DNA from: Deltaproteobacteria bacterium
Lineage (GTDB): Bacteria; Myxococcota_A; UBA9160; UBA4427
Direction: 5' to 3'
Assembly: GCA_029261855.1 (NCBI GenBank)
Contig: JAJDAN010000011.1
Span: 140,646 to 204,645, forward strand
DNA length: 64,000 nucleotides
In this document: one piece after another, positions 13,623 through 54,597 of the stretch
How positions within the stretch are numbered: position 1 is the stretch's first letter
Layout of the letters: every line of letters begins with the position of its first letter
The notes under the pieces: generated by a model
Database searches by the model: none
What the model was told of the DNA's origin: nothing
Seen by the model: only the letters and a program-made list of their open reading frames with translations
Program-made: the position numbers and the translations under genes

Positions 13623-14669
13623 TCAGGCTTCCTCTTTCGGCACTTGGTTCGGAAACGCGTTCGGCGCTGCGCTCGGAAATGCGTTCGGCGCTGCGCTCGG
13701 AAATGGGCCATCGACGACGCCGGGCAGCTGGCTCGGCGAATAGAACTGCTTCACCCACTTTCGGAACTCGACCAGATAGGTGTCGGCCTCACAGAAGACC
13801 GGGTCCTTGCGGTGGATCTTGTTCGACCAGATCCGACGGTCGTCTTCGACGCCGCCGGTGATGTTGGCGATCCACTCTTCGCCCGCCTCGTCGATGGCGT
13901 TGTTGGTCCCGACGAGGGCCCAGCGGGAACGCGTGTTGTGGCGGTCGATCGGAGTCGTCGACGAGAACATGTAGAGCCCGACCCCCGGGATGCCGCGGCT
14001 TTCCACGGTCGCGTGACCGATGCAGCCGGCCTCGCGCAACAGCTGCATGTCGAAGGTCCCGAAGGGCGTCTCCTGCTGGCTGTGGCTGACCGCCTTGAGC
14101 AGGCGACCGTCTTCTTCGAAGCTGATCTCCTGGTCCGGGATGTCGTTCATCGAGTGGACGTAGCGGAAGTGGACCGGGTCCATGTTGTTCTCGGCCATGT
14201 CCTGCACGTGCACGGGCACGTCGATCTCGAAGCTGCGGACCGCCGACCAGTCGGGGTCGTCGAAGTGCGGGGAAGGCTCGATGTGCCAGCTCGGCGGCTT
14301 CTGCTCGGCGTGGTGCCACACCATGACCATGTGGTTCACCTCGTCCACCGGCCAGGCGCGCTGGCGCGCCTTCTGCGGAATGCGGGCGCAATAGGGGATG
14401 GAGACGCATTCGCCCGTCTCGCCGTCGTACTCCCAGGCATGGAAGGGGCAGCGGATGCTCTCGCCTGAAATGCGCCCGCCCTCTGCGAGGTGCGCGCCCA
14501 GGTGCGAGCAGTACGCCGAGAGAACGCGCGCCTTGCCGGATCGCGTGCGGAAGAGCACCAGTTCTTCGCCGAACGCCTTTACGCGCTTCACCTCGCCGAT
14601 CGCGAGCTCCCGCGTCCACGCGACGGCATACCAGCCGTTCGGGAACCCGGGTCGCAGGTCCTGGTCCAT
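13623..14669 (-). CDS. Rieske [2Fe-2S] non-haem-iron oxygenase, KshA-like
   Basis: ORF 13623..14669. Rieske motif CSHLGAHL...CPFHAWEYD. Catalytic region NNMDPVHFRYVH. C-terminal duplicated PSAAPNAF. Confidence 0.85.
   Translation of the reverse strand: MDQDLRPGFPNGWYAVAWTRELAIGEVKRVKAFGEELVLFRTRSGKARVLSAYCSHLGAHLAEGGRISGESIRCPFHAWEYDGETGECVSIPYCARIPQKARQRAWPVDEVNHMVMVWHHAEQKPPSWHIEPSPHFDDPDWSAVRSFEIDVPVHVQDMAENNMDPVHFRYVHSMNDIPDQEISFEEDGRLLKAVSHSQQETPFGTFDMQLLREAGCIGHATVESRGIPGVGLYMFSSTTPIDRHNTRSRWALVGTNNAIDEAGEEWIANITGGVEDDRRIWSNKIHRKDPVFCEADTYLVEFRKWVKQFYSPSQLPGVVDGPFPSAAPNAFPSAAPNAFPNQVPKEEA
13651..13698. repeat. 24-bp tandem duplication (x2, third copy partial) inside the 3' end of the Rieske oxygenase gene
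   Basis: ggaaaYgcgttcggcgctgcgctc is repeated back to back. It encodes PSAAPNAF twice. Confidence 0.9.
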
Positions 14670-14673
14670 CGTG

Positions 14674-15360
14674 TCAGTCCTTTGCCGGCTCGACGCAGAG
14701 CGCGTCGATCAGGAAGCGGGCCGCCTCGAGCGCGCGCTCGTGCAGCGGGTAGTCATCGAGGTTGGCGCGATTGAACATCAGCACGTAGTAGGCGCCGAGG
14801 ATCATCTCCGTGAGGGTTTCCGGGCTGTGCCGCCGGCTGAGGTCGCCGGCTGCGAGGCCATCTCGAACGATGGCCCCGAAGGCCTCGTGGAGGCGCCGCG
14901 CCTGTTCGGGCTCGTCACCGGCCTCGTGTCCGATGTGCACGATTTCGGACAACAGCTCGCGCCCCATCGGCCCAGCCTCGTCGGCATGCTCGGCGACCCG
15001 GCCGAAGAAGCGCCGGATGCGCTCGGCGGACGTCGCCCCCTGCTTGCGGGCGTCCTCGATCTGCTCGAGTAGCTGGTCCACTCCGTAGCGCGCGATCTCG
15101 CGCAACAGCTCGCGCTTCGACTGGAAGTGGTTGAAGAAGGTCTTCTCCGCCACGTCCGCCACGCCACAGATCTCGACGACGGTGGTCTGATCGATGCCCT
15201 GCTGCTGGAACAGCGACACGCTGGCCTCGAGGACGCGATTGCGGACCTCGAGCTTCCGCCGCTCGCGACGGCTGAGATCTCCATTCACCCTGTCGCCCTT
15301 CAAATCGCTGGAGTCGAGGTCGGCGGCCATGGCCGGCATCATTGCATAGATACAGTCCAC
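14674..15360 (-). CDS. TetR/AcrR family transcriptional regulator
   Basis: ORF 14674..15360. HTH region TTVVEICGVADVAEKTFFNHFQSKRELL. Start uncertain: GTG 15360, or ATG 15342, 15339 or 15330. Confidence 0.85.
   Translation of the reverse strand: MDCIYAMMPAMAADLDSSDLKGDRVNGDLSRRERRKLEVRNRVLEASVSLFQQQGIDQTTVVEICGVADVAEKTFFNHFQSKRELLREIARYGVDQLLEQIEDARKQGATSAERIRRFFGRVAEHADEAGPMGRELLSEIVHIGHEAGDEPEQARRLHEAFGAIVRDGLAAGDLSRRHSPETLTEMILGAYYVLMFNRANLDDYPLHERALEAARFLIDALCVEPAKD

Positions 15361-24348: not shown

Positions 24349-24353
<5 letters not shown>
24334..24353. terminator. 20-bp perfect palindrome between convergent genes, overlapping the sucA stop
   Basis: gctgacgcgcgcgcgtcagc is its own reverse complement. 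The sucA stop codon (24349-24351) lies inside it. Confidence 0.45.
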
Positions 24354-27183
<2,830 letters not shown>

Positions 27184-29890: not shown

Positions 29891-30769
29891 TTAGCAGAGC
29901 GTTCCGATGCGCGTCCCGAGGCGCAGCGGCGTCCCCGGCTCGCGTATGTCCAGATCGAGGAAACCCCGCGCCGCCAGCAGCACGATCGTCGAACCGAACT
30001 CGAAGCGCCCCCATTCCTGGCCGCGCTCGAAGCCGACGGGCGGCTCGTAGCTTCGCTGGGTGGTGCCGGCGCCCGGGATGTTGGTCGTCAGATCGTCGAA
30101 CTCGACCTTCACGGACCCGACCATCGTCGCGCCGACAGCAACGAGACACAGGGGCGCGGGCCCGGTACCGCCCGGCGGCTGCATCCAGGCACAGATCCGC
30201 TCGTTCTCCGCGAACAGGCCATCGACGCCGCGCAGTCCGATGCCGTTGACGGGCCACAGCCTCCCGGGCAGATGGCTCGCCGCAACGACTTCCAGGGCAC
30301 ACGGTGTGTGGAAGCGGTGATAGTCCCGGGGCGACAGGTACAGGGTTGCGAAGACGCCGCCCTCGAGACGCCTGGCAGCGACGCCGTCCCCCAACAGCGC
30401 GGCGAGGGAATAGTGACGCCCCTTGACCTGCAGCAAGCTGCCGTTCTCGATGCTGCCGGCGGCGCCCCAGGCGCCATCGCAGGGCGAGACGAACGCCGCT
30501 TCGGCGGGATCGATCGGGCGCGCATCATCGCGCAAGCGGCGCGTGAAGAAGTCCTGGAAGCTTGCGAAGGACTCGACCGGGTCCCGCGCTTCCGTGAAGT
30601 CCACGCCGAAGATGCGACCGAAGCCGCGAATGGCCGCGCGCAGCACCGGGCCGGGCAGCCGCGCAGCGGCGACTCGTCCCGCGAGACGCGACACCCACTT
30701 CACGGGCAGCACCCGCAGCAGCGCCGCAGCGGCGCGCGAGATCGTCCCGTTCGGCAAGCCGCTCGACAT
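29891..30769 (-). CDS. psd: Phosphatidylserine decarboxylase proenzyme
   Basis: C-terminal 292 aa of ORF 29891..33637, starting at ATG 30769. Motifs YLSPRDYHRFH, and the self-cleavage site FEFGSTIVLL. The rest of the 1248-aa ORF is an antisense shadow. Confidence 0.9.
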   Translation of the reverse strand: MSSGLPNGTISRAAAALLRVLPVKWVSRLAGRVAAARLPGPVLRAAIRGFGRIFGVDFTEARDPVESFASFQDFFTRRLRDDARPIDPAEAAFVSPCDGAWGAAGSIENGSLLQVKGRHYSLAALLGDGVAARRLEGGVFATLYLSPRDYHRFHTPCALEVVAASHLPGRLWPVNGIGLRGVDGLFAENERICAWMQPPGGTGPAPLCLVAVGATMVGSVKVEFDDLTTNIPGAGTTQRSYEPPVGFERGQEWGRFEFGSTIVLLAARGFLDLDIREPGTPLRLGTRIGTLC

Positions 30770-30834
30770 CGCGCGCAGCGTAGCCCAGGGCTCGCCGCCC
30801 TCGGCCTCACCGGCGATCTGATAGCCTGACCGCG

Positions 30835-31752
30835 ATGCGATTGCGCCCGTCGACGCTGCTCGCACCGCTTCTCGGCCTCGGCGTCCTGGGCGCTGCCTGC
30901 GCCGGACTGCAATGGGAGCCGCTCGGGCCGCGCCGCACGCAAGCCATCCCGGAAGTCTCCCGGGTCGGCAGCGAAGAGTGCGGGGTCTGCCACGAGGACG
31001 TGCGGGGCCACGAGAAGATCGCGTCCTATCACGGGGACTGTGAAGCCTGCCACGGAGGGGGCAGTCTCCACGCGAAGACCGAGGCAACCGCGGACATCCG
31101 GCACCCCTCCAACGCCGAGTGTCTCGGCTGCCACAGCGTCGCGCGGAATACGCATCTGCAGTGGGGCAACGGCGAGCATTCACGCGCGGGCCTCTACTGC
31201 ACGGACTGTCACGACCCGCATGCCACCACCACGCGTCACCTGCGCGGGCTCGAACACGTCCGCTTCCCGGACATCGACGCGGCATCGGCACTGTGCCTGT
31301 CCTGCCACGACGAGATCGCCGCGCGGCTGGGCTTCCCGTCTCACCATCCCGTGCCGGAAGGGGCGATGAGCTGCGTGTCCTGTCACGACCCCCACGAAGA
31401 CGAGCGCGTCGCCTTCGGCGATCGCAACCAGCTGTGCGCGGGCTGCCATCAGGACACGATGGGGCCCTGGATCTTCGAGCACCCACCCGTGGTAGATGAC
31501 TGCGGGATCTGCCACGCACCACACGGGGCGGTGGGTGACCACCTGCTCGAAACGATCCAACCCGTGGCCTGTCTCGGCTGTCACACCGTCGCCGACCTCG
31601 CGCACCACGAGAACCTGAGCGCCACGGGCATCCCGGGCAACACCATCGGAAGCCCATTGACGCGCCAGGAGGCCGCGACCTTCCTCGACCGCTGCACCGA
31701 CTGCCACGGCGCCATCCACGGGTCCTACACCGATGAGTTCCTGCGCCACTGA
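30835..31752 (+). CDS. Decahaem c-type cytochrome, MtrA/DmsE/PioA-like periplasmic conduit subunit
   Basis: ORF 30835..31752, 305 aa. Signal peptide present. Exactly ten CxxCH motifs: CGVCH CEACH CLGCH CTDCH CLSCH CVSCH CAGCH CGICH CLGCH CTDCH. Family-typical GPWIFEHPPV...CGICHAPHG and C-terminal CTDCHGAIHGS. Confidence 0.9.
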   Translation: MRLRPSTLLAPLLGLGVLGAACAGLQWEPLGPRRTQAIPEVSRVGSEECGVCHEDVRGHEKIASYHGDCEACHGGGSLHAKTEATADIRHPSNAECLGCHSVARNTHLQWGNGEHSRAGLYCTDCHDPHATTTRHLRGLEHVRFPDIDAASALCLSCHDEIAARLGFPSHHPVPEGAMSCVSCHDPHEDERVAFGDRNQLCAGCHQDTMGPWIFEHPPVVDDCGICHAPHGAVGDHLLETIQPVACLGCHTVADLAHHENLSATGIPGNTIGSPLTRQEAATFLDRCTDCHGAIHGSYTDEFLRH

Positions 31753-33970
31753 ACGTCTCGAGCGCGAGCGAACGGCTCACGCCTTCGCGGCGTGGGGCGT
31801 CTCGGTCCTGCTCCTCACCGCGTTGCCCGTCACGGCCGACGAGCCGGACACGACGGACGCCGACGCCGTCGCGGCCTTCGAGGCTCGCGCCGAGTTCACG
31901 CTGGGAGCGCGCTTCTACGTCATCGACAGCCCGCAGGACAACGACAACATCGGCGGCTTCTGGGATCAGTACCGGCAGACGAGAAAGAAGAACGCCGACC
32001 CGCCCACCTTCATCGACGTCCTCCACAGCGACCTCGGGCTCGCCCGCGACGACGACACCTGGCTGCTCCATCTCGAGAGCTGGAGCCCCAACGCCAACAA
32101 CGACCACGTCGCGGTCGACGCAGGCGATGGTGGGGTCGAGATCGACATCGACTACCGCCGCTATCGCAGCGAAGACCTGCGCGTCTTTCCGGAGGGCACC
32201 TTCCAGGGACAGAATCCCCCGAGCCCGATCTTTCCCTTTGGCACGGAGTACACCCCGGACGCCAGCGACGCCGAAGTTCTCGACTCGAACCGGCGGCTCT
32301 TCCTGCAGCGCACGGGGATCCACGGCGAGCTGCGCTTCCGCCCCGAGGGCTTCGACCTCGACCTTCCGCTGCTTGCCGAGGCGAGCCTCCGGTCCGGCTT
32401 CGAACGCCGCAAGGGCTTCCGCCAGGACCGCTTCCTGCTCGACATCGTCGAGCTCGCACCGAGCAATCAGCGCTTCCGGGGAAATCGACGCAAGCTCGAC
32501 CAGGAAGTGTCGAACGTCGGTGGCGCGGTGGTGGTCAGCCCGGGCGGCGATTGGGTGACGGACTTCGACGTCTCCTTCGAGAGCTTCCGGGAGAAGGCCG
32601 ACCCGGTGCTCTTCTCCGACATCGCGGCCTCGGACCCGTCGATCCCCACGCCCACGGGCAATACCGCGCTGCGCGCGTTCGACTTCGTGCCGAACACCGA
32701 CCGGGTGTCCGGCAGCATGCGGGTCGCTGGCCCCGTCGGTCCCGCGTCGGTGCAGGCCGGCGCCTTCGCGACCCACCTGAAGCAGACCAACAAGGCGCCA
32801 CTGCAGCGAAGCCTCGGTATCGACAAGCAGGCCCTCACCACCTGGTCCGCACACCTGGGCTTCGACCTTCCGCTGACCGACGGGGCGAAGGCACTCGGGA
32901 AGGTCGGCCTCAACGGATTCGCCAAGTTCTCCGAGCGTCTCAACGATCTCGACGAGAACGACTTCGAGGGGAACCGACAGATCGCGCCCATCCTGCGCCG
33001 TCGCAGCGAGCTCGAGGCGCAGCTCGAGCTCACCGCGCGACCGCTTCCCGGGGCCCTCGTCGGCACCGGCTACCGCTTCGATTCCGTCGACCGGAACCTG
33101 CGCTATGCCGCGCCACCCGGCGTCATTCAGCCCCCGCTTTCGCTCGTGGAGAAGGACGGGCAGACGCATACCGTCTACCTGCGCGCGCGCACGCGGTTGC
33201 TGCGCCGCATGCAGCTGCGCGGCGAGTTGGGCTGGCAGTACGCGCCCCAGCGCAGCTTCCCGCGCGACCCCACCTACACCGTCTACTTCGACGGCCGCGG
33301 CAGCTACACCCTGCCGCGCCCCTTCCCGCTGACACTGTCCGTCTACGGCGGCGTCCGCGACGGACACGGCAACGGCAAGGTGTTGACCGGCGAGAGCACC
33401 CAGGCCCGCAAGGACCTCGACCGACTGCAGTGGAGCTACGGGGCGACGGCCACCGCCCTGCCGATGCGGCGTGTGAGCCTCACGCTTTCGTTCATCGAGC
33501 AACGCGACGAGCAGGACTTCCCGTACCTGCGTACGGACGTCCCGCGCACAGCGGGCCCCTCCTTCACCAACTTCCTGCCCGGAACCGAGCGGCCCCACTA
33601 CCGGAGCGACGTCAAGAGCCTCGCCAACAGTCTCCATCTGAAGCTACCCGCCGACGTCGACCTCCGGCTCTTCAGCAGCGTCAGCTGGGTGCGCGCCGAC
33701 TACTCGGACGCGAGGTCGGACTCGAGCAACACGTCGAGGGTGCTCGAGAGCGCGAGCGAGGTGAAGAGTCGTATCCTGTCCGCCGGAAGCGGGGTCGGGT
33801 GGACGGCGCGCGAAGGGCTTCGCTTCGACCTCGGGTACCGCTTCGATGACTACGTCGACCATCGCGACCGCGGCGCCCTCATCGACCCCGACGATCGGCG
33901 GCACACCTTCACGGTCGCGATGACCGTCGACCTGGGCGTGTTCTCCGGGGCCGCGCGCACGCGCCGCTAG
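31733..33970 (+). CDS. Large outer-membrane beta-barrel candidate, MtrB/PioB-like partner of the decahaem cytochrome
   Basis: ORF 31733..33970. It overlaps the cytochrome gene by 20 nt. Signal peptide ...VSVLLLTALPVTA/DEP. 745 aa. Alternating amphipathic strands rich in Y/F/R/D/G (LRFDLGYRFDDY, HTFTVAMTVDLGVF). The family assignment rests on context and composition only. Confidence 0.6.
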   Translation: MSSCATERLERERTAHAFAAWGVSVLLLTALPVTADEPDTTDADAVAAFEARAEFTLGARFYVIDSPQDNDNIGGFWDQYRQTRKKNADPPTFIDVLHSDLGLARDDDTWLLHLESWSPNANNDHVAVDAGDGGVEIDIDYRRYRSEDLRVFPEGTFQGQNPPSPIFPFGTEYTPDASDAEVLDSNRRLFLQRTGIHGELRFRPEGFDLDLPLLAEASLRSGFERRKGFRQDRFLLDIVELAPSNQRFRGNRRKLDQEVSNVGGAVVVSPGGDWVTDFDVSFESFREKADPVLFSDIAASDPSIPTPTGNTALRAFDFVPNTDRVSGSMRVAGPVGPASVQAGAFATHLKQTNKAPLQRSLGIDKQALTTWSAHLGFDLPLTDGAKALGKVGLNGFAKFSERLNDLDENDFEGNRQIAPILRRRSELEAQLELTARPLPGALVGTGYRFDSVDRNLRYAAPPGVIQPPLSLVEKDGQTHTVYLRARTRLLRRMQLRGELGWQYAPQRSFPRDPTYTVYFDGRGSYTLPRPFPLTLSVYGGVRDGHGNGKVLTGESTQARKDLDRLQWSYGATATALPMRRVSLTLSFIEQRDEQDFPYLRTDVPRTAGPSFTNFLPGTERPHYRSDVKSLANSLHLKLPADVDLRLFSSVSWVRADYSDARSDSSNTSRVLESASEVKSRILSAGSGVGWTAREGLRFDLGYRFDDYVDHRDRGALIDPDDRRHTFTVAMTVDLGVFSGAARTRR

Positions 33971-33977
33971 CGACCGG

Positions 33978-33996
33978 GATCGCTCGACTAGCGATC
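33978..33996. terminator. Stem-loop between the convergent mtrB-like gene and the cytochrome operon
   Basis: gatcgct-cgact-agcgatc: 7-bp perfect stem and 5-nt loop. It overlaps the minus-strand stop at 33988-33990. Confidence 0.35.
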
Positions 33997-34671
33997 CGCC
34001 TCGGCGGCTTCCTCGGCGGCCTCCTGAGCGTCTTCCAGCTCGACGAAGCGGCCCTTCACGTCGGCGGGGATCGGGTGGGCGATGCGTTCCTTTGCGGTCG
34101 CGAAGTCGAACCCCGCGCGGCTTCCGTCGGGCAGCTGATAGCGGTTCGGGTCGAAGGTCGGGCTCGATGCGTTGTGGCAACCGATGCAGAGCGCCTCGTC
34201 GTCGGCGTCGCGCAACCCCTTGCGCGTGGCGAGCTTGCGGTCGGACATGATCTTCTTCTTGCGGTAGTCGCGACCCGGCCCGTGGCAGGTCTCGCACTGC
34301 ACACCGTCTTCCCGGCCGAGCGGGTGTGCGACGCGCACGGGGGGCACGCCGTGAGCGCTCAGGTGACAACCCAGGCAGGCGTCGCTCTCTGCCGGGGGTC
34401 GATCGAGTCCCTGCTCGGCGGCGATCGCCAGCGACGCGGGGCTCTTCAGCGTCGCGTAGGCGTGCCGGTGTGGTCCGGATCTCCAGGCAGCTACCTGGTC
34501 TCCCATCAGCTGCTTCTCGTGACAGGTCCGGCACTTCTCGACGCCCACCCAGTCCCGATCCCGCGCGGCGGCCGGCGACCCCACGAGCAGCCCACTCCCG
34601 ATCACGATTCCGATCCCGATTCCGATCGCGCCCAGGCGACCGGCATGGCGGACCCGGCTCCCGGGAGGCAT
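33988..34671 (-). CDS. Tetrahaem cytochrome c (cytochrome c554-like)
   Basis: ATG 34671 in frame within ORF 33988..35343. The stop of the upstream gene and this ATG share 1 nt (TGATG). N-terminal signal/anchor. Four CxxCH motifs: CRTCH, CLGCH, CETCH, CIGCH. Also WRSGPHRHAYATL. Confidence 0.85.
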   Translation of the reverse strand: MPPGSRVRHAGRLGAIGIGIGIVIGSGLLVGSPAAARDRDWVGVEKCRTCHEKQLMGDQVAAWRSGPHRHAYATLKSPASLAIAAEQGLDRPPAESDACLGCHLSAHGVPPVRVAHPLGREDGVQCETCHGPGRDYRKKKIMSDRKLATRKGLRDADDEALCIGCHNASSPTFDPNRYQLPDGSRAGFDFATAKERIAHPIPADVKGRFVELEDAQEAAEEAAEADR

Positions 34672-35483
34672 CACGAGAGACTTCGAAGCATCAGCCAGAG
34701 ACAGACGCAGACGGCGGCGAGCGCGGCGAGCAACGCGGCTCCGAAGCGAACGCGACGGTCGACCTGGCCCTCGTACGCGGACACCTGCTGCGCGATCTCG
34801 TCGACCTTCGCCTGGCTGGCGGCATGGGCCCTCGCGATCTCGCCGTCGTCGAAGCCGTGCACCGCACGCGCGAGTCGCGCGCGCTCGACCTGGAGCCTCG
34901 CGCGGTAGTCGGAAAGCTCGATCCCCCGGTCCTCCACCGCGGCCAGGCGCTCGAGTACGCGCCCGCGCGCCTCCCGGGCCGAGCCGAGTAGCGCGACCGC
35001 GGCCTGCGGGTCCGCGAGGGCCGGACACCCCGGGCAGCTGTCGGACGTCACGATCTGCCCGGGCTGCGCTTCCTGGACGCGGTGCCCCTCCTGCATGTGG
35101 CAGCTCGCGCAGGTCGCCACGCGAATGCCGTCTGCCAGCGCGGCACCAAAACGCCCCTGGCGGTAGCTCTCGGCGATGCCTTCGTGACACGCGCCGCAGT
35201 GCTCCGTCATCTCGGTCCAGGACGGCAGGTCCATGAAGCCCGCTTCCGGACTCATGGATGCGTCCGCGTCCTCGACGCGGGGATCCCCGCCGTGACAGGC
35301 ATCGCAGGACACACCGCTCGCGGCATGCACGCTCTCCCGCCACTCGGGCACGGGCAACGCGAGCACCGCGTCGATGTCGACCTCATGGCAGGCCACGCAG
35401 GTGTCGTCGTCCGCCCGACCGATGGCGGAGATCGCCGACGACAGGATGACGAGCAGCACTCCCCCCAAGAGCCAGCCCTTCAC
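34671..35483 (-). CDS. Tetrahaem cytochrome c with coiled coil and C-terminal TM anchor (c1-like role)
   Basis: GTG 35483 overlaps the cytochrome b stop (GTGA), in frame within ORF 34671..36014. Signal sequence MKGWLLGGVLLVILSSAISAIGRA. Four CxxCH motifs: CVACH, CDACH, CGACH, CASCH. C-terminal helix FGAALLAALAAVCVCLWLML. Confidence 0.8.
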   Translation of the reverse strand: MKGWLLGGVLLVILSSAISAIGRADDDTCVACHEVDIDAVLALPVPEWRESVHAASGVSCDACHGGDPRVEDADASMSPEAGFMDLPSWTEMTEHCGACHEGIAESYRQGRFGAALADGIRVATCASCHMQEGHRVQEAQPGQIVTSDSCPGCPALADPQAAVALLGSAREARGRVLERLAAVEDRGIELSDYRARLQVERARLARAVHGFDDGEIARAHAASQAKVDEIAQQVSAYEGQVDRRVRFGAALLAALAAVCVCLWLMLRSLS

Positions 35484-36541
35484 GCCCGAGCTCCCGCGAT
35501 CGTCAAGGCCACGAAGGCAAGCACGACCCCGATCAGAACCGTCGTCAGGTAGGGTCGATCCCGGGGATGTCGCCGGGGGCTGCGGTCGACCAGCGGCAAG
35601 GCAAACAGCGCGAGCAACAGGCCAGCCTGGACGATCAGCGCCAGCCGCTCCGGCATGAAGCGGGGCAGCGCGTAGGCCCACAGGAAGTACCACTCGGGCT
35701 TCACGTTCAAGGGAGTATCGAAGGGATCCGCCGGCAACGCGTGCTCGACAGGAAAGAAGAGATTCGGCGCGAAGACCACCGAGGCGACCAATGCCATCGC
35801 GAAGACGCCGCACGCCAGCGCAGCGCGAAGGGCGACGCGCGGCCACACGGGGATCGGCGCAGGCCCTTCCGCGTCCGCGCGACGCCCCGGTCGACCGGCG
35901 AGGCCGACCCGGCGAACCCAGGCGAGGTGGACCGCGACGCCGGCCACGAGGGCGAGCGGCAGCAGCGCGACGTGGGCCGCGAAGGCCCTTCGATAGGTGG
36001 CGTCGCCCACCCACTCACCACCGCGGACCCACTCCGTGGCGCTCTGACCCACGAAGGGCAGGTAGGAGAGCGACGCGGTCACCACGGTGGTCGCCCAGAA
36101 GGAAGTCTGGCTCCAGGGCAGGATGTAGCCCGTCAAGGCCGACGCCAGGATCGCCAGGAACAGGACGCAGCCACTCCACCAGACGGCCTCGCGCGGGTCC
36201 TTGTAGCTGCCCCGGAAGGCGGCGTGAAAGAGGTGCACGAATGCGATGGCAACCAGGAAGCTCGCACCGTGCGCGTGTGCGAGGCGGATCAACCAGCCGT
36301 AGGGAACGTCGCGCATGAGCGCGCGCACGCTCTCGAAGGCGCCGGACGGGTCCGGCACGAAGTGGAACAGCAGCAACATCCCCGTCGCCAGCTGCAACAG
36401 CAACGCGAAGACGAGCACGGCTCCGAGCGATACAGGCTTCCCGGTATCGGCGGGCACCCGGTAGGCGGCAAATCGCCGAATGGACGTGCCGAGGCCGGTT
36501 CGTCGGTCGAGGGACTGCCACAGGCGTCGGCTGCGAGACAT
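35480..36541 (-). CDS. Cytochrome b (fused b6 and subunit-IV type) of a Rieske/cytochrome b complex
   Basis: ORF 35480..36541. Bis-His helices RLAHAHGASFLVAIAFVHLFH and AAHVALLPLALVAGVAVHL. PEWYFLWAY motif. Confidence 0.9.
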   Translation of the reverse strand: MSRSRRLWQSLDRRTGLGTSIRRFAAYRVPADTGKPVSLGAVLVFALLLQLATGMLLLFHFVPDPSGAFESVRALMRDVPYGWLIRLAHAHGASFLVAIAFVHLFHAAFRGSYKDPREAVWWSGCVLFLAILASALTGYILPWSQTSFWATTVVTASLSYLPFVGQSATEWVRGGEWVGDATYRRAFAAHVALLPLALVAGVAVHLAWVRRVGLAGRPGRRADAEGPAPIPVWPRVALRAALACGVFAMALVASVVFAPNLFFPVEHALPADPFDTPLNVKPEWYFLWAYALPRFMPERLALIVQAGLLLALFALPLVDRSPRRHPRDRPYLTTVLIGVVLAFVALTIAGARA

Positions 36542-36544
36542 CGC

Positions 36545-37000
36545 TCAGGTCTTGCGCACGACGATGGCGCCCGGCTCTTCGCTCACCTCGAGCCGAGCGA
36601 GGGAACGCGGAGCCGGTCCGCCCCGCACGCGGCCTTCGGCGTCGAAGCGGGCGCCGTGGCACGGGCAGAAGAACTCGCGACGCCCCTTGCGCCACTTCAC
36701 CACGCAGCCGAGGTGCGTACAGATCGCGGAGAATGCCCGCACCCCTTCGTTGGTGCGCACGACCAACACGGGCCGACCCGCCACCACCACCTGCCGCGCC
36801 TCCCACAGGCCCAGGCTGTCGTCGATGGCGGCGACGGCCTCCGCCTCGGGCAGCGCGAGGGGCCGCAGGTAGCTGGCAACGGGTGCCGCGGCCATTCCGG
36901 CCAGCACCGCAGTGGATCCGCCCATCAACAGCTGAAGCACGCGACGACGATCGACGCCCCGCTCGGGTCTGTTGCCGTCGTCGTCGCCAGGCGGTGCCAT
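36545..37000 (-). CDS. Rieske [2Fe-2S] iron-sulfur subunit (Tat-exported)
   Basis: ORF 36545..37000. Twin-arginine signal [12 protein letters not shown]. Cluster motifs CTHLGC and CPCHGARF. Confidence 0.9.
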
Positions 37001-37097
37001 GAGCGGCCATTCTCAAGGATCGGCGTGCACGACGCAATCTCGCCCCTCGGCTACCGTGGTCCCCGCTCCCACCGCCGGAGCCGGAGGACGAGTCCCC

Positions 37098-37823
37098 TTG
37101 CTGGCAAGTCGCAGTCGCCCGATCTGGATCGTCGTTCTCCTGCTGCTCTCGAGCGCGCCCGCATCCTCTAACGAGAACGGCATCGACTCGTTCTTTCAGA
37201 GCGATGGCGCGGGTACCTGCGGCGGCGGCGTCTCGGGCATCCTGTGTCACGGCCCCGCTTCGGACGATGTGCAGGTGACGATCGCGGGGCCAGCCAACCT
37301 GGCTCCGGGTGAGACCCAGGCCTACACGATCGAGATCGAGCAGCTGGCGCCGGGCGGGTTGCAGATCGGCGCGGGGCTCAACGTCCACGCCTACATGGAC
37401 CAGGTCCTCACGGATCTCGACGACGGTGTCCTCACCGAAGCCCTCGACAACGCGCAGATCACGACCGCCGACGGCCTGCAGTTCGTCTTCACGGGTCAGC
37501 TGACCCACGTCAACGCGCCGAGCATGGGGACCGACGGATCCCGGGGCGTGTTCGCCTACAGCTTCGAGGTCACGGCCCCGGACGAGCCCGGCAGCCTCGA
37601 GCTGCGGGGCGCCATGAATTCCTTCAACGACAGCGGTGACAACTTCGGCGACAAGTGGAGCAACACCTCCCTCGTCGTCACGGTGCCGGAGCCGACGACC
37701 ACAGCCGCGGCGGGCCTCGCAAGCGTGCTCGCCCTCGGGATCCTCGGAGGGCGGAGGACGCGGCGCCTGACCGGGGCGCGAAATCGGGGTCGCGGCCTGA
37801 TCCGCATGACGGATCAGGGCTAG
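37098..37823 (+). CDS. Secreted PEP-CTERM protein of unknown function
   Basis: In frame within ORF 36972..37823. Preferred start is TTG 37098, with GGAGGA 9 nt upstream, giving the signal peptide MLASRSRPIWIVVLLLLSSAPASS. Canonical tail VPEPTTTAAAGLASVLALGILGGRRTRR. Confidence 0.7.
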   Translation: MLASRSRPIWIVVLLLLSSAPASSNENGIDSFFQSDGAGTCGGGVSGILCHGPASDDVQVTIAGPANLAPGETQAYTIEIEQLAPGGLQIGAGLNVHAYMDQVLTDLDDGVLTEALDNAQITTADGLQFVFTGQLTHVNAPSMGTDGSRGVFAYSFEVTAPDEPGSLELRGAMNSFNDSGDNFGDKWSNTSLVVTVPEPTTTAAAGLASVLALGILGGRRTRRLTGARNRGRGLIRMTDQG

Positions 37824-37832
37824 CGTTGGCCC

Positions 37833-38360
37833 ATGGCGTCGACCCACCTCGTCCTCACCGTCATCGCCCGGGACCAACCGGGCGTCGTCGAAGCCCTCTC
37901 CCAGGCCGTCGCCCAGCAGGACGCGAACTGGCTCGGCAGCCGGATGGCTCGGCTCGGGGGCGAATTCGCGGGGATCGTCGAGGTCAGCGTGCCGACCTCG
38001 AACGCCACCGCCCTGCGCGATGCCCTCACCGCCCTCGAAGCGCGCGGCCTGCGGGTCCTCATCCAGGAGTCGACCGCCCGGGCGGACAGCGGCGGGGACT
38101 CGCGGCGGCTGCACCTCGAGCTGGTGGGCAACGACCGACCGGGCATCGTTGCGGAGATTTCGCAGGCCTTGGCTCGGCGCGGAGTGAACGTCGACGAACT
38201 CGAAACCAGCTGCGAGAGCGCCGCCATGTCGGGCGACGCCCTGTTCCGCGCGACCGCCCAGCTCGAGGTGCCAGCCGGGCTCACCGTGGAGTCCCTCGGC
38301 GAAGAACTCGAGAAGATCGCCGCCGACCTGATGGTGGACCTGACCCTCGCCGGAAGGTGA
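37833..38360 (+). CDS. gcvR: Tandem ACT-domain protein, GcvR-like (glycine cleavage system regulator family)
   Basis: ORF 37833..38360. Two ACT N-caps: LVLTVIARDQPGVVEALS and LELVGNDRPGIVAEIS. Confidence 0.7.
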   Translation: MASTHLVLTVIARDQPGVVEALSQAVAQQDANWLGSRMARLGGEFAGIVEVSVPTSNATALRDALTALEARGLRVLIQESTARADSGGDSRRLHLELVGNDRPGIVAEISQALARRGVNVDELETSCESAAMSGDALFRATAQLEVPAGLTVESLGEELEKIAADLMVDLTLAGR

Positions 38361-40164: not shown

Positions 40165-41328
40165 TCAGCCGCCGGCGCCCAGGGTCGTGCTGCCGTCGCG
40201 CTGCCCGAGCTCGCGGCGCATCGCGCGCACCTTGTCCGCGGTCTCGAACAGGGCGCGTAGCTGACAGTGCTCGATGGTCGCGTCGACCACCGCCGCGATG
40301 TCCCGCTCGAAGTACTCCTCCAGCTGCGACATCCGGAAGCGCGCGAACTGCCGACCCGTCTCTCCCGATGTCCAGAAGTGCGCGAACAACCCGATCGTGT
40401 CCCGGGCCAGCTCGCCCTCGGCCGGCGCGTTGGCGTGGATCAGCGAGGTGAGCCCGTCGAGCACCTTCATGGCTCCGAGCATCTCGTTGTGCGCGATCGC
40501 TGCCATGCCCACCTCGAAGAGCGCCTGGCTGCGCGCCATGGTCAGCGCGCGATCCTTGCCACGCGACCACCCGAGCGATTGGGTGATGGTCTGGGTGACC
40601 GCCGGATTTCCCATCGAAATGGACGCGATGCCCAGCGAACTCATGCCGTGGATGGCGCTCGACGCGTCCGTGTGTCCGCTGCGGGTCGGATCGAAGGCGC
40701 GCACGGCACGGCGCAGCACCGCGAGTGCCGGCCCGACGAGCTGGGCCCGCCCTGCCCCGCGCGCCTCGACGACGATGGCCACGACCCCGTCGATCAGATC
40801 CGTCAGCGCGTCGCCCGCGTAGCGCGGGTGCTCGCAGACGCGGTCCGCCAGCTCGCGCAGCGCCAGCAGGGTCGGGAGCTTCTCGCGCACGGGCTCGCTG
40901 CGGCGACCGAACTCGACCAGGTCGTGCAACGAGTCCTCGAGCAGGCGACCGCTGACCTCGAGCTCTCGAGAGCTCTCCCCTGCCAGCAGGCGGATGATCG
41001 CCGACCGCTGGCCATAGCGACGCGGCGCGACGAAGGCCGTCATCACGGAAATCAGCGCCAGCAACCCGAAGCCCACGCTCCAGACCGGGCCGTCCGGCCA
41101 CACGCTGTAGCGATGCACCACCACGGTCCCGGCCGCCACGGCGATGGCGATGATGATGGGCAGCCCCAGGTCTCGGGCGAGCATTCCCCGGCGCTTCTCG
41201 AGTACCTGGCGGATCTCGGGTGGCAACGACTGCAAGACGACCGCCGGCAGACCGATCAGCAGGACGAAGAACGTGACGAGCGCGTCGAACGGGATCTCGG
41301 TGACGATCAGCGCGGGGGCGGAATTCAT
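40165..41328 (-). CDS. Membrane protein (about 4 TM plus an all-helical cytoplasmic domain), unknown function
   Basis: ATG for MNSAPALIV is placed at 41328 from the track frame of ORF 40165..41493. It forms an ATGA overlap with the stop of the upstream REC gene. Confidence 0.65.
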
Positions 41329-41819
41329 CGTCCCCGTTGCTCGAGCAACCGGTCGATCAGCTCGCGCAGGATCGTGTCCGGCAGGTCGGCGCGCTTCTGC
41401 TGCACCACCTCGATACCGAGCTCTTCCAGCAGGTCCAGGATCTCCGTGCGGCAGTCCACGGAGAAGACTGCGATGCGGCTGGGGGACATCCACGGCGGTG
41501 GCTTCGGCAGCTCTCCGTCGGGTGCCTGGGCGGGGCCCAGCAACCAGCGCAGCAGCTGCAGGCCGAGCTCTGCGTGCACCTTGTCGCGACCCGCTCTGCG
41601 ATGCAGCTCCTTCCAGTGCGGGTCGTCACCCGGCGGAAGCCGCACGTCGACCACCACCGCGTCGAACTCCTCCTCGAGGATGTACTCGACGGCGGTCGTC
41701 AGGTCTTCGGCCAGCACCAGCTCGATGCGCCCGTCGTAGAGGACGGGACCGGAGAGATGCGAAAGCTCCGATCGGGCGCCGTCTTCGATCCAGAGGGCTC
41801 GCGGTCGGCTCGGGGGCAT
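41325..41819 (-). CDS. Stand-alone atypical receiver (REC)-like domain protein
   Basis: ORF 41325..41819. Receiver-like blocks ALWIEDG, DAVVVDVRLPPGD, IAVFSV and VQQK. A roughly 35-aa insertion follows the putative phospho-Asp. Confidence 0.6.
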   Translation of the reverse strand: MPPSRPRALWIEDGARSELSHLSGPVLYDGRIELVLAEDLTTAVEYILEEEFDAVVVDVRLPPGDDPHWKELHRRAGRDKVHAELGLQLLRWLLGPAQAPDGELPKPPPWMSPSRIAVFSVDCRTEILDLLEELGIEVVQQKRADLPDTILRELIDRLLEQRGR

Positions 41820-41912
41820 GGGGCTTGCGTTCTCCTGGGTTCGAATTGCAGGCTACGGGACGCGTTCCGACACGCGCGTGGACGCGGGCGGCGACGGACG
41901 GCAACGACGGGG

Positions 41913-43415
41913 TCAGACCGCCAGGGGCAAGGTCAGGGTGACCCGGGTGAGGAACGGCTGCCGATAGTACTCCCGATGCCCCGGGTCCGGCGAGGAGGCG
42001 CGCGCGGGGCGACTCGTCACGGTCAGGGATCCGCGGTGGGCGTGGGCGACGCGTTGGCTGTCCGTCAAGCCGATCCCGGTCCCCAGGCGCCCGCGGTCCT
42101 TGGACCGCTTCCCGCGGTAGCCCATCTGGAAGATCATGCCCCCCTCGATCTCGCTCCGCTCGACGGGCACGCCCCAGTTCTCCACGTCGATCCGGACGAG
42201 TTCTTCGTCATTCGAGATCTCGATGGAGATCCACGGCGCGTCATGACCCTCGCGCGCCCACGAGTACTTGATGGCGTTGTGGATCATGTTCGTGATCGCG
42301 CGCAGCAGATCTCTGCGATTGCCGAACACTTCGTGATCCTCGGACCGGTTGCGCCAGACCACCTCCACCCGGGCCGCCCGCGCGAACTCCGACAAGTGCG
42401 CGATCGATTCGCGCAGGACCGACGCCACGGTGAAGCGCGTGCTGGGGTCGTCGGTACGGATCTCGGTGGTGATGAAGTCGCGCAGAGCCGCGAGACTGGT
42501 GTCCATCTGGACCACCGCCGTGCGCGACGCGGTGATGTCCATGAAGCAGGTGATCCGTTCCAGCTCCTGCGCGGCGCGCAGGGTGTCCCGCACCACCTCC
42601 TTGGGCATGTTGCCGGGCGCCAGGTCACGACAGGCGGCGAGGATCTCACCCGTCACCGCCCGCAGGGCGGAGATCCGCATCTCGGGAACCGGGATCATCT
42701 CCTCGTAGCCCTCGAGGGTGGGGACCACGGCCTCGAGCTTCTGCCAGCGTTCCGGCGGCAGGGCCTGCGCGCGGCGTTCTTCGTCGCCCGCCTCCATCAG
42801 GCGCTGCAGCGCGGTCACGAGTAGATCCGTACGCTTCGACATCTGCTCTTCGAGCCGGTCGGGATGCGCGGCCTCGTAGTCTGCCTGTAGCTCCGGCTCG
42901 AGCGCGCGCCCGGCCGCGAGCAGGGTCTGGTTGACCATCACCAGGGTCGAGGTGTTCGCGTGCAGGATCTGACCGATGTCGAAGGTCATCTCGCGCACGG
43001 TTTCTTGCAGGGCGTGAGTACGAGCAGCCGCCTGGTGGTCCTCGGTGACGTCGACCATGCAGCCCACGTAGAGGCCGTTGCTCGAGTCATCCTCGTACGG
43101 GATCGGCGCCAGATGGTTCTCGACCCACAGGTCCCGCCCGCCGACCCGTAGGTGAACCAAGGTGCGGCCGCCCTCGCCCGCCCGCTCCACCAGACGCTGC
43201 CAGCCGGCGGACTCGGCATGGAAGTCGGCGATGCTCGCTTCGAGCGCGCCCTCCACGGGCAACTCCAACATGCGCCGCGCCTCGGCGTTGGCGTAGGCCA
43301 GACGTCCCTCGGCATCGGCAATGGTGATGCCCATCGGCAGGTCGATCAGCGGCGCGCTCTCGAGCTGCGAAAGAAGCCAGGAAAGCGTCTGCCGTCCGGT
43401 CTCGGGCGGACTCAT
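41913..43415 (-). CDS. Cytoplasmic PAS sensor kinase with an atypical dimerisation/phosphotransfer region
   Basis: ATG 43415 in frame within ORF 41913..43913. PAS region GITIADAEGRLAYANAEARRML. HATPase N-box ITNMIHNAIKYS and G2 box GTGIGL. I recognise no canonical H-box. Confidence 0.75.
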   Translation of the reverse strand: MSPPETGRQTLSWLLSQLESAPLIDLPMGITIADAEGRLAYANAEARRMLELPVEGALEASIADFHAESAGWQRLVERAGEGGRTLVHLRVGGRDLWVENHLAPIPYEDDSSNGLYVGCMVDVTEDHQAAARTHALQETVREMTFDIGQILHANTSTLVMVNQTLLAAGRALEPELQADYEAAHPDRLEEQMSKRTDLLVTALQRLMEAGDEERRAQALPPERWQKLEAVVPTLEGYEEMIPVPEMRISALRAVTGEILAACRDLAPGNMPKEVVRDTLRAAQELERITCFMDITASRTAVVQMDTSLAALRDFITTEIRTDDPSTRFTVASVLRESIAHLSEFARAARVEVVWRNRSEDHEVFGNRRDLLRAITNMIHNAIKYSWAREGHDAPWISIEISNDEELVRIDVENWGVPVERSEIEGGMIFQMGYRGKRSKDRGRLGTGIGLTDSQRVAHAHRGSLTVTSRPARASSPDPGHREYYRQPFLTRVTLTLPLAV

Positions 43416-43474
43416 TCGGGACTCGCTCCGGGAGTGGCGTGGAGGCGGCGATGATACGCTCTCCGGCCCCCGGA

Positions 43475-43524
43475 TGCCCGGGAGCAGGTGCCGCCTGGGA
43501 GCAAGTGGCGCCTGGGAGCAAGTG
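43475..43524. promoter_or_regulatory. Three direct repeats at an exact 17-bp period in the divergent kinase/panE promoter region
   Basis: tgcccgggagcaggtg (43475), cgcctgggagcaagtg (43492), cgcctgggagcaagtg (43509). Confidence 0.5.
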
Positions 43525-43540
43525 ACGGAAGGGGGGACGC

Positions 43541-44518
43541 GTGAAGGTCGCCGTGTTCGGGGGAGGTGCCGTGGGCCTCGGACTCGCGAGCTGTCTGCTG
43601 GCAGCCGGCGAGACCGTGCATCTCCACGTTCGCAGGCGCGCAGCCCTCGCAGCGCTGAGACGTCACGGGATCCAGCGCGAGGGGCTGTTCGGACCCCGGC
43701 TCGCGAGGCCCGAGGAGTTCGAGGTGTCGACGGACCCGTCGGCTCTCCCGGCGTTCGGTCCCGAGGTCGTGCTGATCTGTACGAAGAGCCCGGACCTGGA
43801 CGCAGCCGCGACCGCGCTCGCCAGGGTCTGGGGAGACCTGCCCGGAGAGCCGGGGGTCGTCGCTTGCATGAACGGCTGGGGGGCCGCCGAGCGGCTGGCT
43901 CGAGACCTCCCACCCGCCCGCATCTTCAATGCGACGATCACGACGGGCTTCCGCCGGCACCCGCTCTACCGGGTCCACGTCACCGTGCACGGCGCGGACG
44001 TGCGGATGGGCAGCCTTTTCGGCGGGCCGGCCGCAGAGCTCGCGCCCCTGTGCGACGCGCTCACGAAGGGCGGGTTGCCGAGCGCCGTGTCCGACGACAT
44101 GGAGGCGGAGATCTGGGCGAAGCTCCTCTACAACTGCGCGCTGAACCCCCTCGCCGCACTGCTCGGCGTCGCCTACGGGTCACTCGGCGAGAACCCGGCC
44201 AGCCGTCGGGTACTGGAAACGGTGGTGGGCGAGATCTTCGCAGTGCTCGCGGCCAGCGGGCGCCGGACGAAGTGGCCATCTGCCGATGCCTACCTCGACT
44301 TCTTCTTCCGCGAGCTGCTGCCCCCGACCCGGGACCACGAGTCGTCCATGCTGCAGGACCTGCGGGCCGGACGACCCACGGAAATCGATGCGCTCAACGG
44401 AGCCGTCGCCCGACTGGGGCAGAATGCCGGCGTCGCGACACCCGTCAACGCGGCCCTGGCAACCCTCGTCCGGTCCCTGCATCCAAGCCTGTATCCAGAC
44501 CAGGGCGCATCCGCTTGA
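43541..44518 (+). CDS. panE: 2-dehydropantoate 2-reductase (ApbA/PanE family)
   Basis: ORF 43541..44518 (GTG, G-rich SD). Rossmann N-terminus MKVAVFGGGAVGLGLA. Also SMLQDLRAGRPTEIDALNG. Confidence 0.8.
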   Translation: MKVAVFGGGAVGLGLASCLLAAGETVHLHVRRRAALAALRRHGIQREGLFGPRLARPEEFEVSTDPSALPAFGPEVVLICTKSPDLDAAATALARVWGDLPGEPGVVACMNGWGAAERLARDLPPARIFNATITTGFRRHPLYRVHVTVHGADVRMGSLFGGPAAELAPLCDALTKGGLPSAVSDDMEAEIWAKLLYNCALNPLAALLGVAYGSLGENPASRRVLETVVGEIFAVLAASGRRTKWPSADAYLDFFFRELLPPTRDHESSMLQDLRAGRPTEIDALNGAVARLGQNAGVATPVNAALATLVRSLHPSLYPDQGASA

Positions 44519-54374: not shown

Positions 54375-54597
54375 GATTCGCCCCGAACATCCGGTGCCCG
54401 TGTTGGCCCCGGTCTCGCTGGCTCATCGGCGGAACGCGGTCCGGGGATGAGCGCGGCGACACGCTCCGGCGTGGGCAACCGCCGCCCTCCACGCACCCCC
54501 GCGAGCCCTATTTTCCTTTGGAAATCGAACCTTTGGCGTCCAACCCCGGATTCCGCTTCGCTATCGTGCGCCGCACCCGACGGAGCCACTCGACACC

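Follow-up and report, generated by a model that had tools for sequence, protein, structure and literature searches.

The 64-kb stretch of DNA analysed here, which we call the window (69% G+C; contig JAJDAN010000011.1, from an uncultured Myxococcota), holds within positions 30835-37000 six tightly packed genes. These encode an MtrA-like decahaem cytochrome, an MtrB-like outer-membrane barrel, a Rieske/cytochrome b (bc) complex with a membrane-anchored tetrahaem cytochrome, and a soluble c554-like tetrahaem cytochrome. Judging from the identity and fold class of these parts, from the structure of the operons and from the co-variation of the genes among relatives, we think it probable that the locus specifies a single, modular route for electrons that connects the menaquinone pool with the cell surface.

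In the pathway that we propose, the Rieske/cytochrome b complex would exchange electrons between menaquinol and the anchored tetrahaem, and the c554-like protein would carry them through the periplasm between that tetrahaem and the decahaem, making physical contact with each in turn. The decahaem, a predicted lipoprotein threaded in a 26-strand MtrB-like barrel, would then move the electrons across the outer membrane. The probable extracellular end-point would be the product of a seventh, neighbouring gene, a PEP-CTERM-anchored protein with a C-X8-CH motif that belongs to the choice-of-anchor V family and is called the anchor-V protein below.

The arrangement of the genes is compact on both strands. 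On the minus strand, the Rieske gene is followed after a 3-nucleotide (nt) gap by the cytochrome b gene, which overlaps that of the tetrahaem of 270 amino acids (aa) by 4 nt, and the latter in turn overlaps the c554-like gene by 1 nt; an earlier note, drawn up from the letters of the window alone, had described just such a four-gene operon with junctions of 1-4 nt. This operon converges on the plus-strand pair of decahaem and barrel genes, with the two stop codons 17 nt apart. Independent gene calls on a public, identical contig give the same six products (305, 745, 227, 270, 353 and 151 aa) with the same boundaries. The count of exactly ten CxxCH motifs in a 305-aa open reading frame (ORF) with a signal-like N-terminus, made in the earlier note, is borne out, and so is the total of 18 CxxCH sites in the six genes (10 + 4 + 4), which would be 18 haem c sites if all were occupied. 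Ten CxxCH motifs in 305 residues, together with a 26-strand barrel model, are far beyond chance. Across the 64 kb, no further CxxCH-bearing coding ORF passed a codon-bias filter, and a scan of positions 30600-37900 for promoters and terminators found no promoter-like site and no credible terminator between the convergent operons.

The c554-like gene and the probable coupling of the two modules

Whether the conduit (decahaem and barrel) and the bc complex work together is a question on which their occurrence in relatives has most to say. We surveyed 30 loci, identified below by L numbers, by tblastn and local hidden Markov model (HMM) searches, judging the absence of bc genes within 10 kb. Those relatives that lie in named genomes all come from uncultured metagenome-assembled genomes (MAGs), labelled Myxococcota, Myxococcales, Deltaproteobacteria or Proteobacteria, and some of these are marine by name (3000-m ocean, TMED). 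The two operons are repeatedly co-localised: the six-gene convergent layout recurs in L002, L003, L008, L023-25 and L030, where the barrel is 43-66% identical to that of the window and which amount to at least five other distinct metagenome contigs, and a rearranged layout occurs in L028.

The gene for the c554-like protein is the most informative of the six. Its overlap with the bc operon is 4 nt long in L028 and a single nucleotide in the window. In four distant loci (L004, L007, L011 and L017; barrel identity 32-35%), it is nevertheless found convergent to the decahaem and barrel genes where no Rieske or cytochrome b gene is present. The reverse case is provided by L026 (4791-8966), which is a natural ‘deletion’ or pre-insertion variant: the order ACT-Rieske-cytochrome b-tetrahaem-psd is kept, and the c554, barrel, decahaem and anchor-V genes are all missing. 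Because c554 is retained without the bc genes and missing where the bc genes stand alone, it belongs genetically with the conduit, and so it is transcribed with one module yet inherited with the other. It is likely to be the link between the two modules and not just a second cytochrome of the bc complex.

The second case comes from L028 (135-6648), whose Rieske-cytochrome b-tetrahaem-c554 operon encodes proteins 50, 43, 38 and 49.5% identical, respectively, to those of the window. Here the operon stands head-to-head with genes for an MtrB/PioB barrel and a DmsE-family decahaem, in divergent orientation and with 197 nt between them. The L028 decahaem is only 31% identical to that of the window, and both conduit proteins pass their curated models (259.9 bits on TIGR03508, with a cut-off of 192, and 276 bits on TIGR03509, with a cut-off of 240). 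On at least two occasions, then, the bc-c554 unit has come to lie beside an MtrAB-type conduit, and the orientation differs between the cases. That c554 is inherited with the conduit and that a second pairing exists in L028 are together the strongest argument available that the modules exchange electrons through c554.

Several observations weigh against this coupling. The same-layout loci share their psd/band 7 and ACT/CoA-transferase flanks wherever the contig reaches (that of L008 is too short), and because this is a conserved housekeeping neighbourhood, their synteny is mostly a matter of vertical inheritance. Eight distinct loci have the conduit without bc genes: the four that retain c554 and another four (L006, L010, L013 and L014) in which decahaem and barrel are the only members of the set. 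With L026 as the converse case, neither module strictly needs the other. Furthermore, L028 is a single 6.7-kb contig of 72% G+C.

If these points were decisive, the two operons would merely be adjacent: the bc complex would be a housekeeping complex III that serves a terminal oxidase, and the conduit and c554, inserted alongside it in one lineage, would use some other inner-membrane partner. The bc genes of L026, which occupy the same neighbourhood without a conduit, the conduit loci at 29-36% barrel identity without bc genes, and the conservation of the psd, band 7, ACT and CoA-transferase flanks, as vertical synteny predicts, all suit such a history, and the oxygen-dependent enzymes encoded in the window make an aerobic chain with a complex III likely. 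However, adjacency without function does not account for a c554 gene that overlaps the bc operon though it co-varies with the conduit, nor for L028 as an independent, oppositely oriented pairing with a different MtrAB lineage. It also leaves aside the anchor-V gene, which lies on the far side of the bc operon and was lost along with the conduit in L026. We regard mere adjacency as rather unlikely on these grounds, and a pathway that joins both modules as the better account of the gene distribution.

Identity of the conduit and of the bc complex

The decahaem finds a sole match in the Protein Data Bank (PDB), and this is MtrA (6r2q_A, E 2.7e-24, residues 68-297). The MtrA/DmsE hallmark strings to which the earlier note had pointed both align to MtrA of 6r2q, GPWIFEHPPV..CGICHAPHG with GPKLWEHAPV..CVTCHNPHG and CTDCHGAIHGS with CLNCHSQVHGS. 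Its best NCBIfam families are GSU2203/OmcK (195.4 bits, E 1e-57) and DmsE/MtrA (TIGR03508; 158.1 bits, E 3e-46), so that a grouping with NrfB, a point that the earlier note had raised, is not what the searches return; an NrfB/NrfH-type identity was rejected, those models giving only E 1e-3 to 1e-2, which is chance level against 1e-57 and 1e-46. The signal peptide of the decahaem is followed by a lipobox, L-[AT]-A-C, and then by W.P.G.RRT (window 30835-30930), in the same position in more than 20 related loci. Because the lipobox is conserved, the decahaems of this clade are predicted to be lipoproteins, a feature found neither in MtrA nor in the canonical decahaem of L028.

The overlap of 20 nt between the decahaem and barrel genes that the earlier note had reported can be seen at 31733-31752, and it is kept in all six of the related loci checked (L002, L003, L004, L007, L011 and L023). 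The barrel start codon sits within the conserved decahaem C-terminus, ..SYTDExLRH*. This overlap suggests translational coupling, although the ATG might be kept merely by way of the Thr-Asp codons.

That the 745-aa protein is a large barrel agrees with its AlphaFold2 (AF2) model, which has 26 strands by DSSP (predicted local distance difference test, pLDDT, 70.7; predicted template-modelling score, pTM, 0.68). In a Foldseek search of the PDB, the model's top match is MtrB (6r2q_B, E 9.4e-17, template-modelling (TM) scores 0.57/0.64), and the runner-up is a 22-strand TonB-dependent receptor (E 2e-10, TM ~0.36). The protein collection contains 17 barrel homologs besides the window protein, and PF11854 (MtrB_PioB) is matched by 7 of the 17 aligned barrel sequences, among which the window protein is counted (best E 2.7e-9). 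The barrel is thus connected to MtrB because of its fold, these transitive Pfam matches and its gene context, the link at the level of sequence being only transitive.

Other searches count against an MtrAB identity. The decahaem falls below both curated cut-offs (325 bits for GSU2203/OmcK and 192.2 bits for TIGR03508), and the 745-aa protein has no Pfam match of its own, PF11854 included, and none to TIGR03509. Its only NCBIfam match is GSU2204, with 21.6 bits where 350 are required. A profile of the barrel family searched against PDB sequences did not retrieve MtrB, returning just chance-level matches to a TonB-dependent receptor and to Opa, and hhalign, comparing the family with the canonical MtrB of L028, gave an unsupportive probability of 10.8%. 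Weighing the predicted structures and alignments together with these scores, we conclude that the decahaem and barrel would work like MtrAB and form a divergent subfamily that is not filed under the curated models.

Since DmsE is the second-best family of the decahaem, and DmsE/DmsF-type pairs serve an extracellular dimethyl sulfoxide (DMSO) reductase, barrel and decahaem could instead supply electrons to a terminal reductase that is exposed at the surface and acts on a soluble substrate, as DmsEF-DmsAB of Shewanella does. This is very improbable, in that no gene for a molybdoenzyme or any other reductase lies beside the cluster in the window or in the related loci examined.

The identities that the earlier note had assigned to the four minus-strand products agree with both their motifs and their Pfam matches. 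The Rieske protein has an RRR twin-arginine motif and the boxes CTHLGC-x12-CPCHGARF, with the disulfide cysteines, spaced as in the b6f protein PetC; it scores 54.6 bits on PF00355, and its best NCBIfam match is of PetC type (90 bits, with a cut-off of 154). In the window and in the seven relatives that yielded the motif, box II reads CPCHG[AG]RF. Mutants of yeast S183 and Y185 have established that Ser and Tyr in this box raise the potential. Because both are replaced in CPCHGARF, the centre is expected to be of the low-potential, menaquinol type.

Cytochrome b combines Cytochrome_B (PF00033, 169 bits) with Cytochrom_B_C (PF00032, 63 bits) in one chain. Its haem ligands are H89/H103 (Hx13H, helix B) and H190/H205 (Hx14H, helix D), the PEWY motif of the Qo site begins at residue 282, and the four haem-b histidines and PEWY are kept in all relatives. 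Compared with proteins in the PDB, it scores 204 bits with bc1 cytochrome b and 130 bits with b6; its top NCBIfam match is ExtP, at 161.8 bits, failing the equivalog cut-off of 290. A b6f-type haem ci was considered and rejected, there being no Cys before helix A and, by eye, VSLGA at the position of the ci-binding Cys of b6. Taken as a whole, and as far as motifs can tell, the complex is probably b6f-like and of the menaquinol type.

The 270-aa tetrahaem has hydrophobic segments at residues 3-21 and 248-266. It scores just 17.3 bits on the ExtM model (cut-off 800), and no relative was found among the solved structures of the PDB. Its place in the complex is indicated by P0047, a partial protein of 424 aa that joins the PEWY-containing C-terminal part of cytochrome b to the tetrahaem and its C-terminal anchor, a fusion analogous to QcrC of Bacillus. 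Because of this fusion, we take the tetrahaem to be a subunit of the bc complex in the position of cytochrome c1.

As for the c554-like protein, it scores 60.3 bits on the Pfam family Cytochrome_C554 (PF13435; cut-off 20.8) and matches the structure of Nitrosomonas c554 (PDB 1bvb) at E 1.3e-8. It failed the equivalog model of Nitrosomonas CycA (NF043010), with 43.9 bits where 400 are needed. By these scores, it is a predicted member of the c554 fold class and not the nitrifier protein.

A candidate surface partner and the proposed direction of electron flow

The anchor-V gene is divergent from the Rieske operon, with 97 nt between them. Its product scores 80.9 bits on NF041895 (cut-off 42) and has at its C-terminus VPEP, a run of hydrophobic residues and a tail rich in Arg. 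All convergent six-gene loci with enough flank have the gene, and L026 does not. Of two loci without bc genes, L006 has it immediately behind the barrel gene and L007 has it close to the conduit. An exhaustive HMMER search for the family yielded 136 cluster representatives, and 138 sequences were examined for the motif. Near the mature N-terminus, 118 of the 138 have C-Xn-CH; n is 2, the canonical CxxCH, in 49 sequences, 4 in 27 and 1 in 22, and in the other 20 it is 6, 8, 10, 5, 9 or 3 (n = 8 in the window protein). Across 53 full-length members, C41, C50, H51 and a distal H137 are invariant, and VPEP is conserved.

The motif and the distal histidine read as the signature of a putative bis-His c-type haem site with a variable loop, and the family looks like one of unrecognised, surface-anchored monohaem cytochromes. 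Given its predicted anchor and presumed surface location, and since it co-varies with the conduit, the anchor-V protein may be the surface partner of the conduit. An AF2 model made from a four-sequence alignment (pLDDT 44) was too poor for a fold search.

Two of the distant loci that have the conduit with c554 only encode other candidates. In L004 (5855-8989) and L011 (3092-6321), the decahaem gene is preceded by that of a small Haem_bd-type monohaem protein, and before this stands a gene whose product, about 870 aa long, contains a single CxxCH and acidic, cysteine-rich repeats of myxo type. These two proteins may be alternative surface partners.

A third kind of partner occurs in a Myxococcales MAG. 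At 3163-5418 of L013, on the plus strand, a gene for an OmcA/MtrC decahaem (TIGR03507, 403 bits against 209) stands directly upstream of a decahaem/barrel pair of the same subfamily as that of the window, which is an mtrCAB-like gene order within the window's own subfamily. The earlier note was right that the window has no MtrC or OmcA, and from this it had assigned the conduit to the metal-oxidising MtoAB/PioAB type. That step is weakened because a candidate surface partner, one that co-varies with the conduit, adjoins the cluster and because L013 has MtrC.

For the direction of flow, we lean to outward. The bc complex would oxidise quinol, and the acceptor would be of moderately high potential, for example Mn(IV) oxide or chelated or colloidal Fe(III); inward use of the same wiring would also be possible. 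We lean this way because Rieske/cytochrome b complexes oxidise quinol in their forward reaction and c554 closes the operon, because the relative L013 has MtrC and the flanks are those of an aerobic heterotroph, and because the Rieske box, CPCHGARF, is without the potential-raising Ser and Tyr. Two facts speak against outward flow: an electron derived from a Rieske centre (about +100 mV or more) is unable to reduce crystalline Fe(III) oxides, and it is from iron oxidisers that bc complexes are known to take part in extracellular electron transfer (PMC5566968, PMC10734462).

The same wiring could serve electron uptake. Electrons from Fe(II), another reduced mineral, a cathode or a partner cell would pass through barrel and decahaem to c554, and from there downhill to a terminal oxidase and uphill, by way of the tetrahaem and a reversed bc complex, to menaquinone. 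The window protein matches Nitrosomonas c554, which takes up electrons from a donor in the periplasm and passes them on in the direction of the quinone pool; the window, like MtoAB and PioAB systems, is without an MtrC/OmcA gene; and many of the related contigs are from marine MAGs. In addition, bc1 is the accepted uphill branch in iron oxidisers, neutrophilic and acidophilic alike (PMC5566968, PMC10654088, PMC10734462). Against this stand the lack of visible genes for autotrophy, Cyc2 or a terminal oxidase in the 64 kb and the heterotrophic look of the flanks, the MtrC of a same-subfamily relative, which is typical of reducers, and the candidate surface partner encoded here. Moreover, oxidising and reducing MtrA homologs are inseparable by sequence alone. 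We therefore treat uptake as possible though doubtful, and continue to lean to outward flow.

A more specific version of the pathway can be put forward tentatively. The Rieske/cytochrome b complex would be the dedicated quinol oxidase (or, in reverse, quinone reductase) of an MtrAB-type conduit in marine Myxococcota, where it would replace CymA, ImcH and Cbc-type enzymes. The conduit would end in a new PEP-CTERM monohaem family whose motif tolerates 1-10 residues between the cysteines, and open-ocean aerobic heterotrophs would thereby gain the energy conservation of a Q cycle. Such a chain would form a new class among those for extracellular electron transfer. Were this so, the system might be of use, for example, in the redox chemistry of Mn or Fe particles or in reductive iron acquisition.

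Known systems and genomic setting

Routes from the quinone pool to a conduit are settled for only a few model organisms, through CymA, ImcH, CbcL and CbcBA, and the part that bc complexes play in extracellular electron transfer has, to our knowledge, been deduced up to now and not demonstrated genetically. The locus is a compact natural test case, in that conduit, shuttle and bc complex are encoded together, that relatives offer deletion and rearrangement variants, and that a candidate family of surface cytochromes goes with it. If the proposed coupling is true, a proton-motive Q cycle can be linked with extracellular electron transfer, uncultured marine Myxococcota are added to the bearers of this trait, and the uncharacterised Cbc6/Ext cluster of Geobacter has a counterpart for comparison.

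With MtrCAB of Shewanella (6R2Q), the locus shares a decahaem homologous to MtrA, MtrB as the best match of its barrel, and a cytochrome gene directly upstream of the barrel gene. It differs in the absence of an MtrC gene from the window, in the lipobox of its decahaem and in its sub-cut-off scores on TIGR03508 and TIGR03509; and its inner-membrane partner is a Rieske/cytochrome b complex where Shewanella has the NapC/NirT-type CymA. MtoAB-MtoD-CymA of Sideroxydans lithotrophicus ES-1 and PioABC of Rhodopseudomonas palustris combine, in one locus, a conduit without MtrC, a small periplasmic shuttle and a quinone-reactive inner-membrane component (PMC5566968, PMC4412085, PMC6831781). Their shuttle is the monohaem MtoD or the high-potential iron-sulfur protein (HiPIP) PioC in place of a c554-like tetrahaem, and the window is set apart from them by its three-subunit Rieske/cytochrome b complex, a probable heterotrophic Myxococcota host and the linked PEP-CTERM C-Xn-CH protein.

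The earlier note had called a direct linkage of a bc complex and a conduit no textbook arrangement, but such a linkage does have a precedent. The extHIJKL-MNOPQS cluster of Geobacter sulfurreducens (Cbc6/CbcMNOPQR) encodes a porin-like protein, multihaem cytochromes, the Rieske protein ExtO and the cytochrome b ExtP in one conserved cluster, as a predicted link from menaquinone to the outside (PMC5877670, PMC13591261), and it is the closest known case of a conduit and a quinone-reactive partner in one locus. Its parts are nonetheless different. ExtI is a 45-kDa porin of another family and not MtrB-like, the cytochromes carry 12, 10, 5 and 4 haems in other architectures, and cytochrome b is split between ExtP and ExtQ where that of the window is fused. 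Geobacter also has the pair GSU2203 (OmcK) and GSU2204; the latter, described as an MtrB/PioB-type barrel (PMC13188914), contains CxxCH whereas the window barrel has none. In PCC3 and PCC4 of iron oxidisers, one cluster encodes a porin, multihaem cytochromes of the periplasm and a b-haem protein dedicated to the system in the inner membrane, which are proposed to span the whole envelope (PMC5566968); the b-haem protein there is a dihaem protein of five helices that lacks a Rieske partner, and neither the porins nor the cytochromes are related to those here in size or haem number.

The bc complex itself resembles b6f and the QcrABC complex of Firmicutes in the Rieske spacing and CTHLGCVV.W, which are as in PetC, in the Hx14H of helix D, in PEWY, and in a c-type cytochrome that can be fused to the subunit IV part (QcrC). 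It departs from them in that b6 and subunit IV are fused (353 aa) and the haem ci Cys is missing, in that a tetrahaem with a C-terminal anchor and a long helical stalk serves as its c subunit, and in that a c554-like gene ends the operon.

In the searchable literature, we found no specific description of an MtrAB-bc pairing or of a Myxococcota Mtr system. New here are the combination of an MtrAB-family conduit with a Rieske/cytochrome b complex that is b6f-like, probably of menaquinol type, and equipped with a tetrahaem analogue of c1, and a c554-type shuttle as a gene shared between the two modules. So too are a decahaem with predicted lipidation and a C-Xn-CH PEP-CTERM protein linked to the conduit, and all four come from uncultured Myxococcota.

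Table 1. Features of the window and positions of anchor-V homologs in related loci.
Feature	Position	Strand	Length	Basis
MtrA-like decahaem c-type cytochrome, predicted lipoprotein	30835..31752	+	305 aa	ten CxxCH motifs
MtrB-like 26-strand outer-membrane beta-barrel	31733..33970	+	745 aa	AF2 model, Foldseek
c554-like tetrahaem cytochrome, predicted periplasmic shuttle	33988..34671	-	227 aa	four CxxCH, Pfam Cytochrome_C554
Tetrahaem cytochrome c, N-terminal signal and C-terminal transmembrane anchor, c1 position	34671..35483	-	270 aa	four CxxCH
Fused cytochrome b (b6 + subunit IV equivalent)	35480..36541	-	353 aa	PF00033 + PF00032
Rieske [2Fe-2S] subunit, twin-arginine signal	36545..37000	-	151 aa	PF00355
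Choice-of-anchor V protein, signal peptide, C-X8-CH, PEP-CTERM tail	37098..37823	+	241 aa	NF041895
KshA-like Rieske oxygenase	13623-14708	-		
2-oxoglutarate dehydrogenase E1 subunit	24349-27183	-		
Asp/Asn beta-hydroxylase	54451-55434	+		
Anchor-V homolog, L002	15297-15980			
Anchor-V homolog, L003	7709-8404			
Anchor-V homolog, L006	11976-12632			
Anchor-V homolog, L007	9020-9643			
Anchor-V homolog, L008	6530-7150			
Anchor-V homolog, L023	7759-8382			

The genes that flank the cluster (Table 1), which also include those for acyl-CoA dehydrogenases, point to a host that is predicted to be an aerobic heterotroph.

Another Rieske/cytochrome b complex in a locus seemingly built for extracellular electron transfer was found in L029 (GCA_040961345.1, 1-20744). 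This large and unrelated cluster encodes a NiFe hydrogenase, several multihaem cytochromes, a cytochrome b-multihaem fusion and a DOMON protein, together with a Rieske protein, a 438-aa cytochrome b and a 506-aa protein without a Pfam match that is possibly a porin.

A few kilobases from the cluster, at 40165-43913 on the minus strand of the window, lie genes for a PAS histidine kinase, a receiver-like protein of 164 aa and a membrane protein of about 440 aa without a Pfam match. The trio is syntenic in L002 and L003, and its two smaller genes are also present in L026; because they are kept where the conduit is absent, the trio is probably not specific to the conduit.

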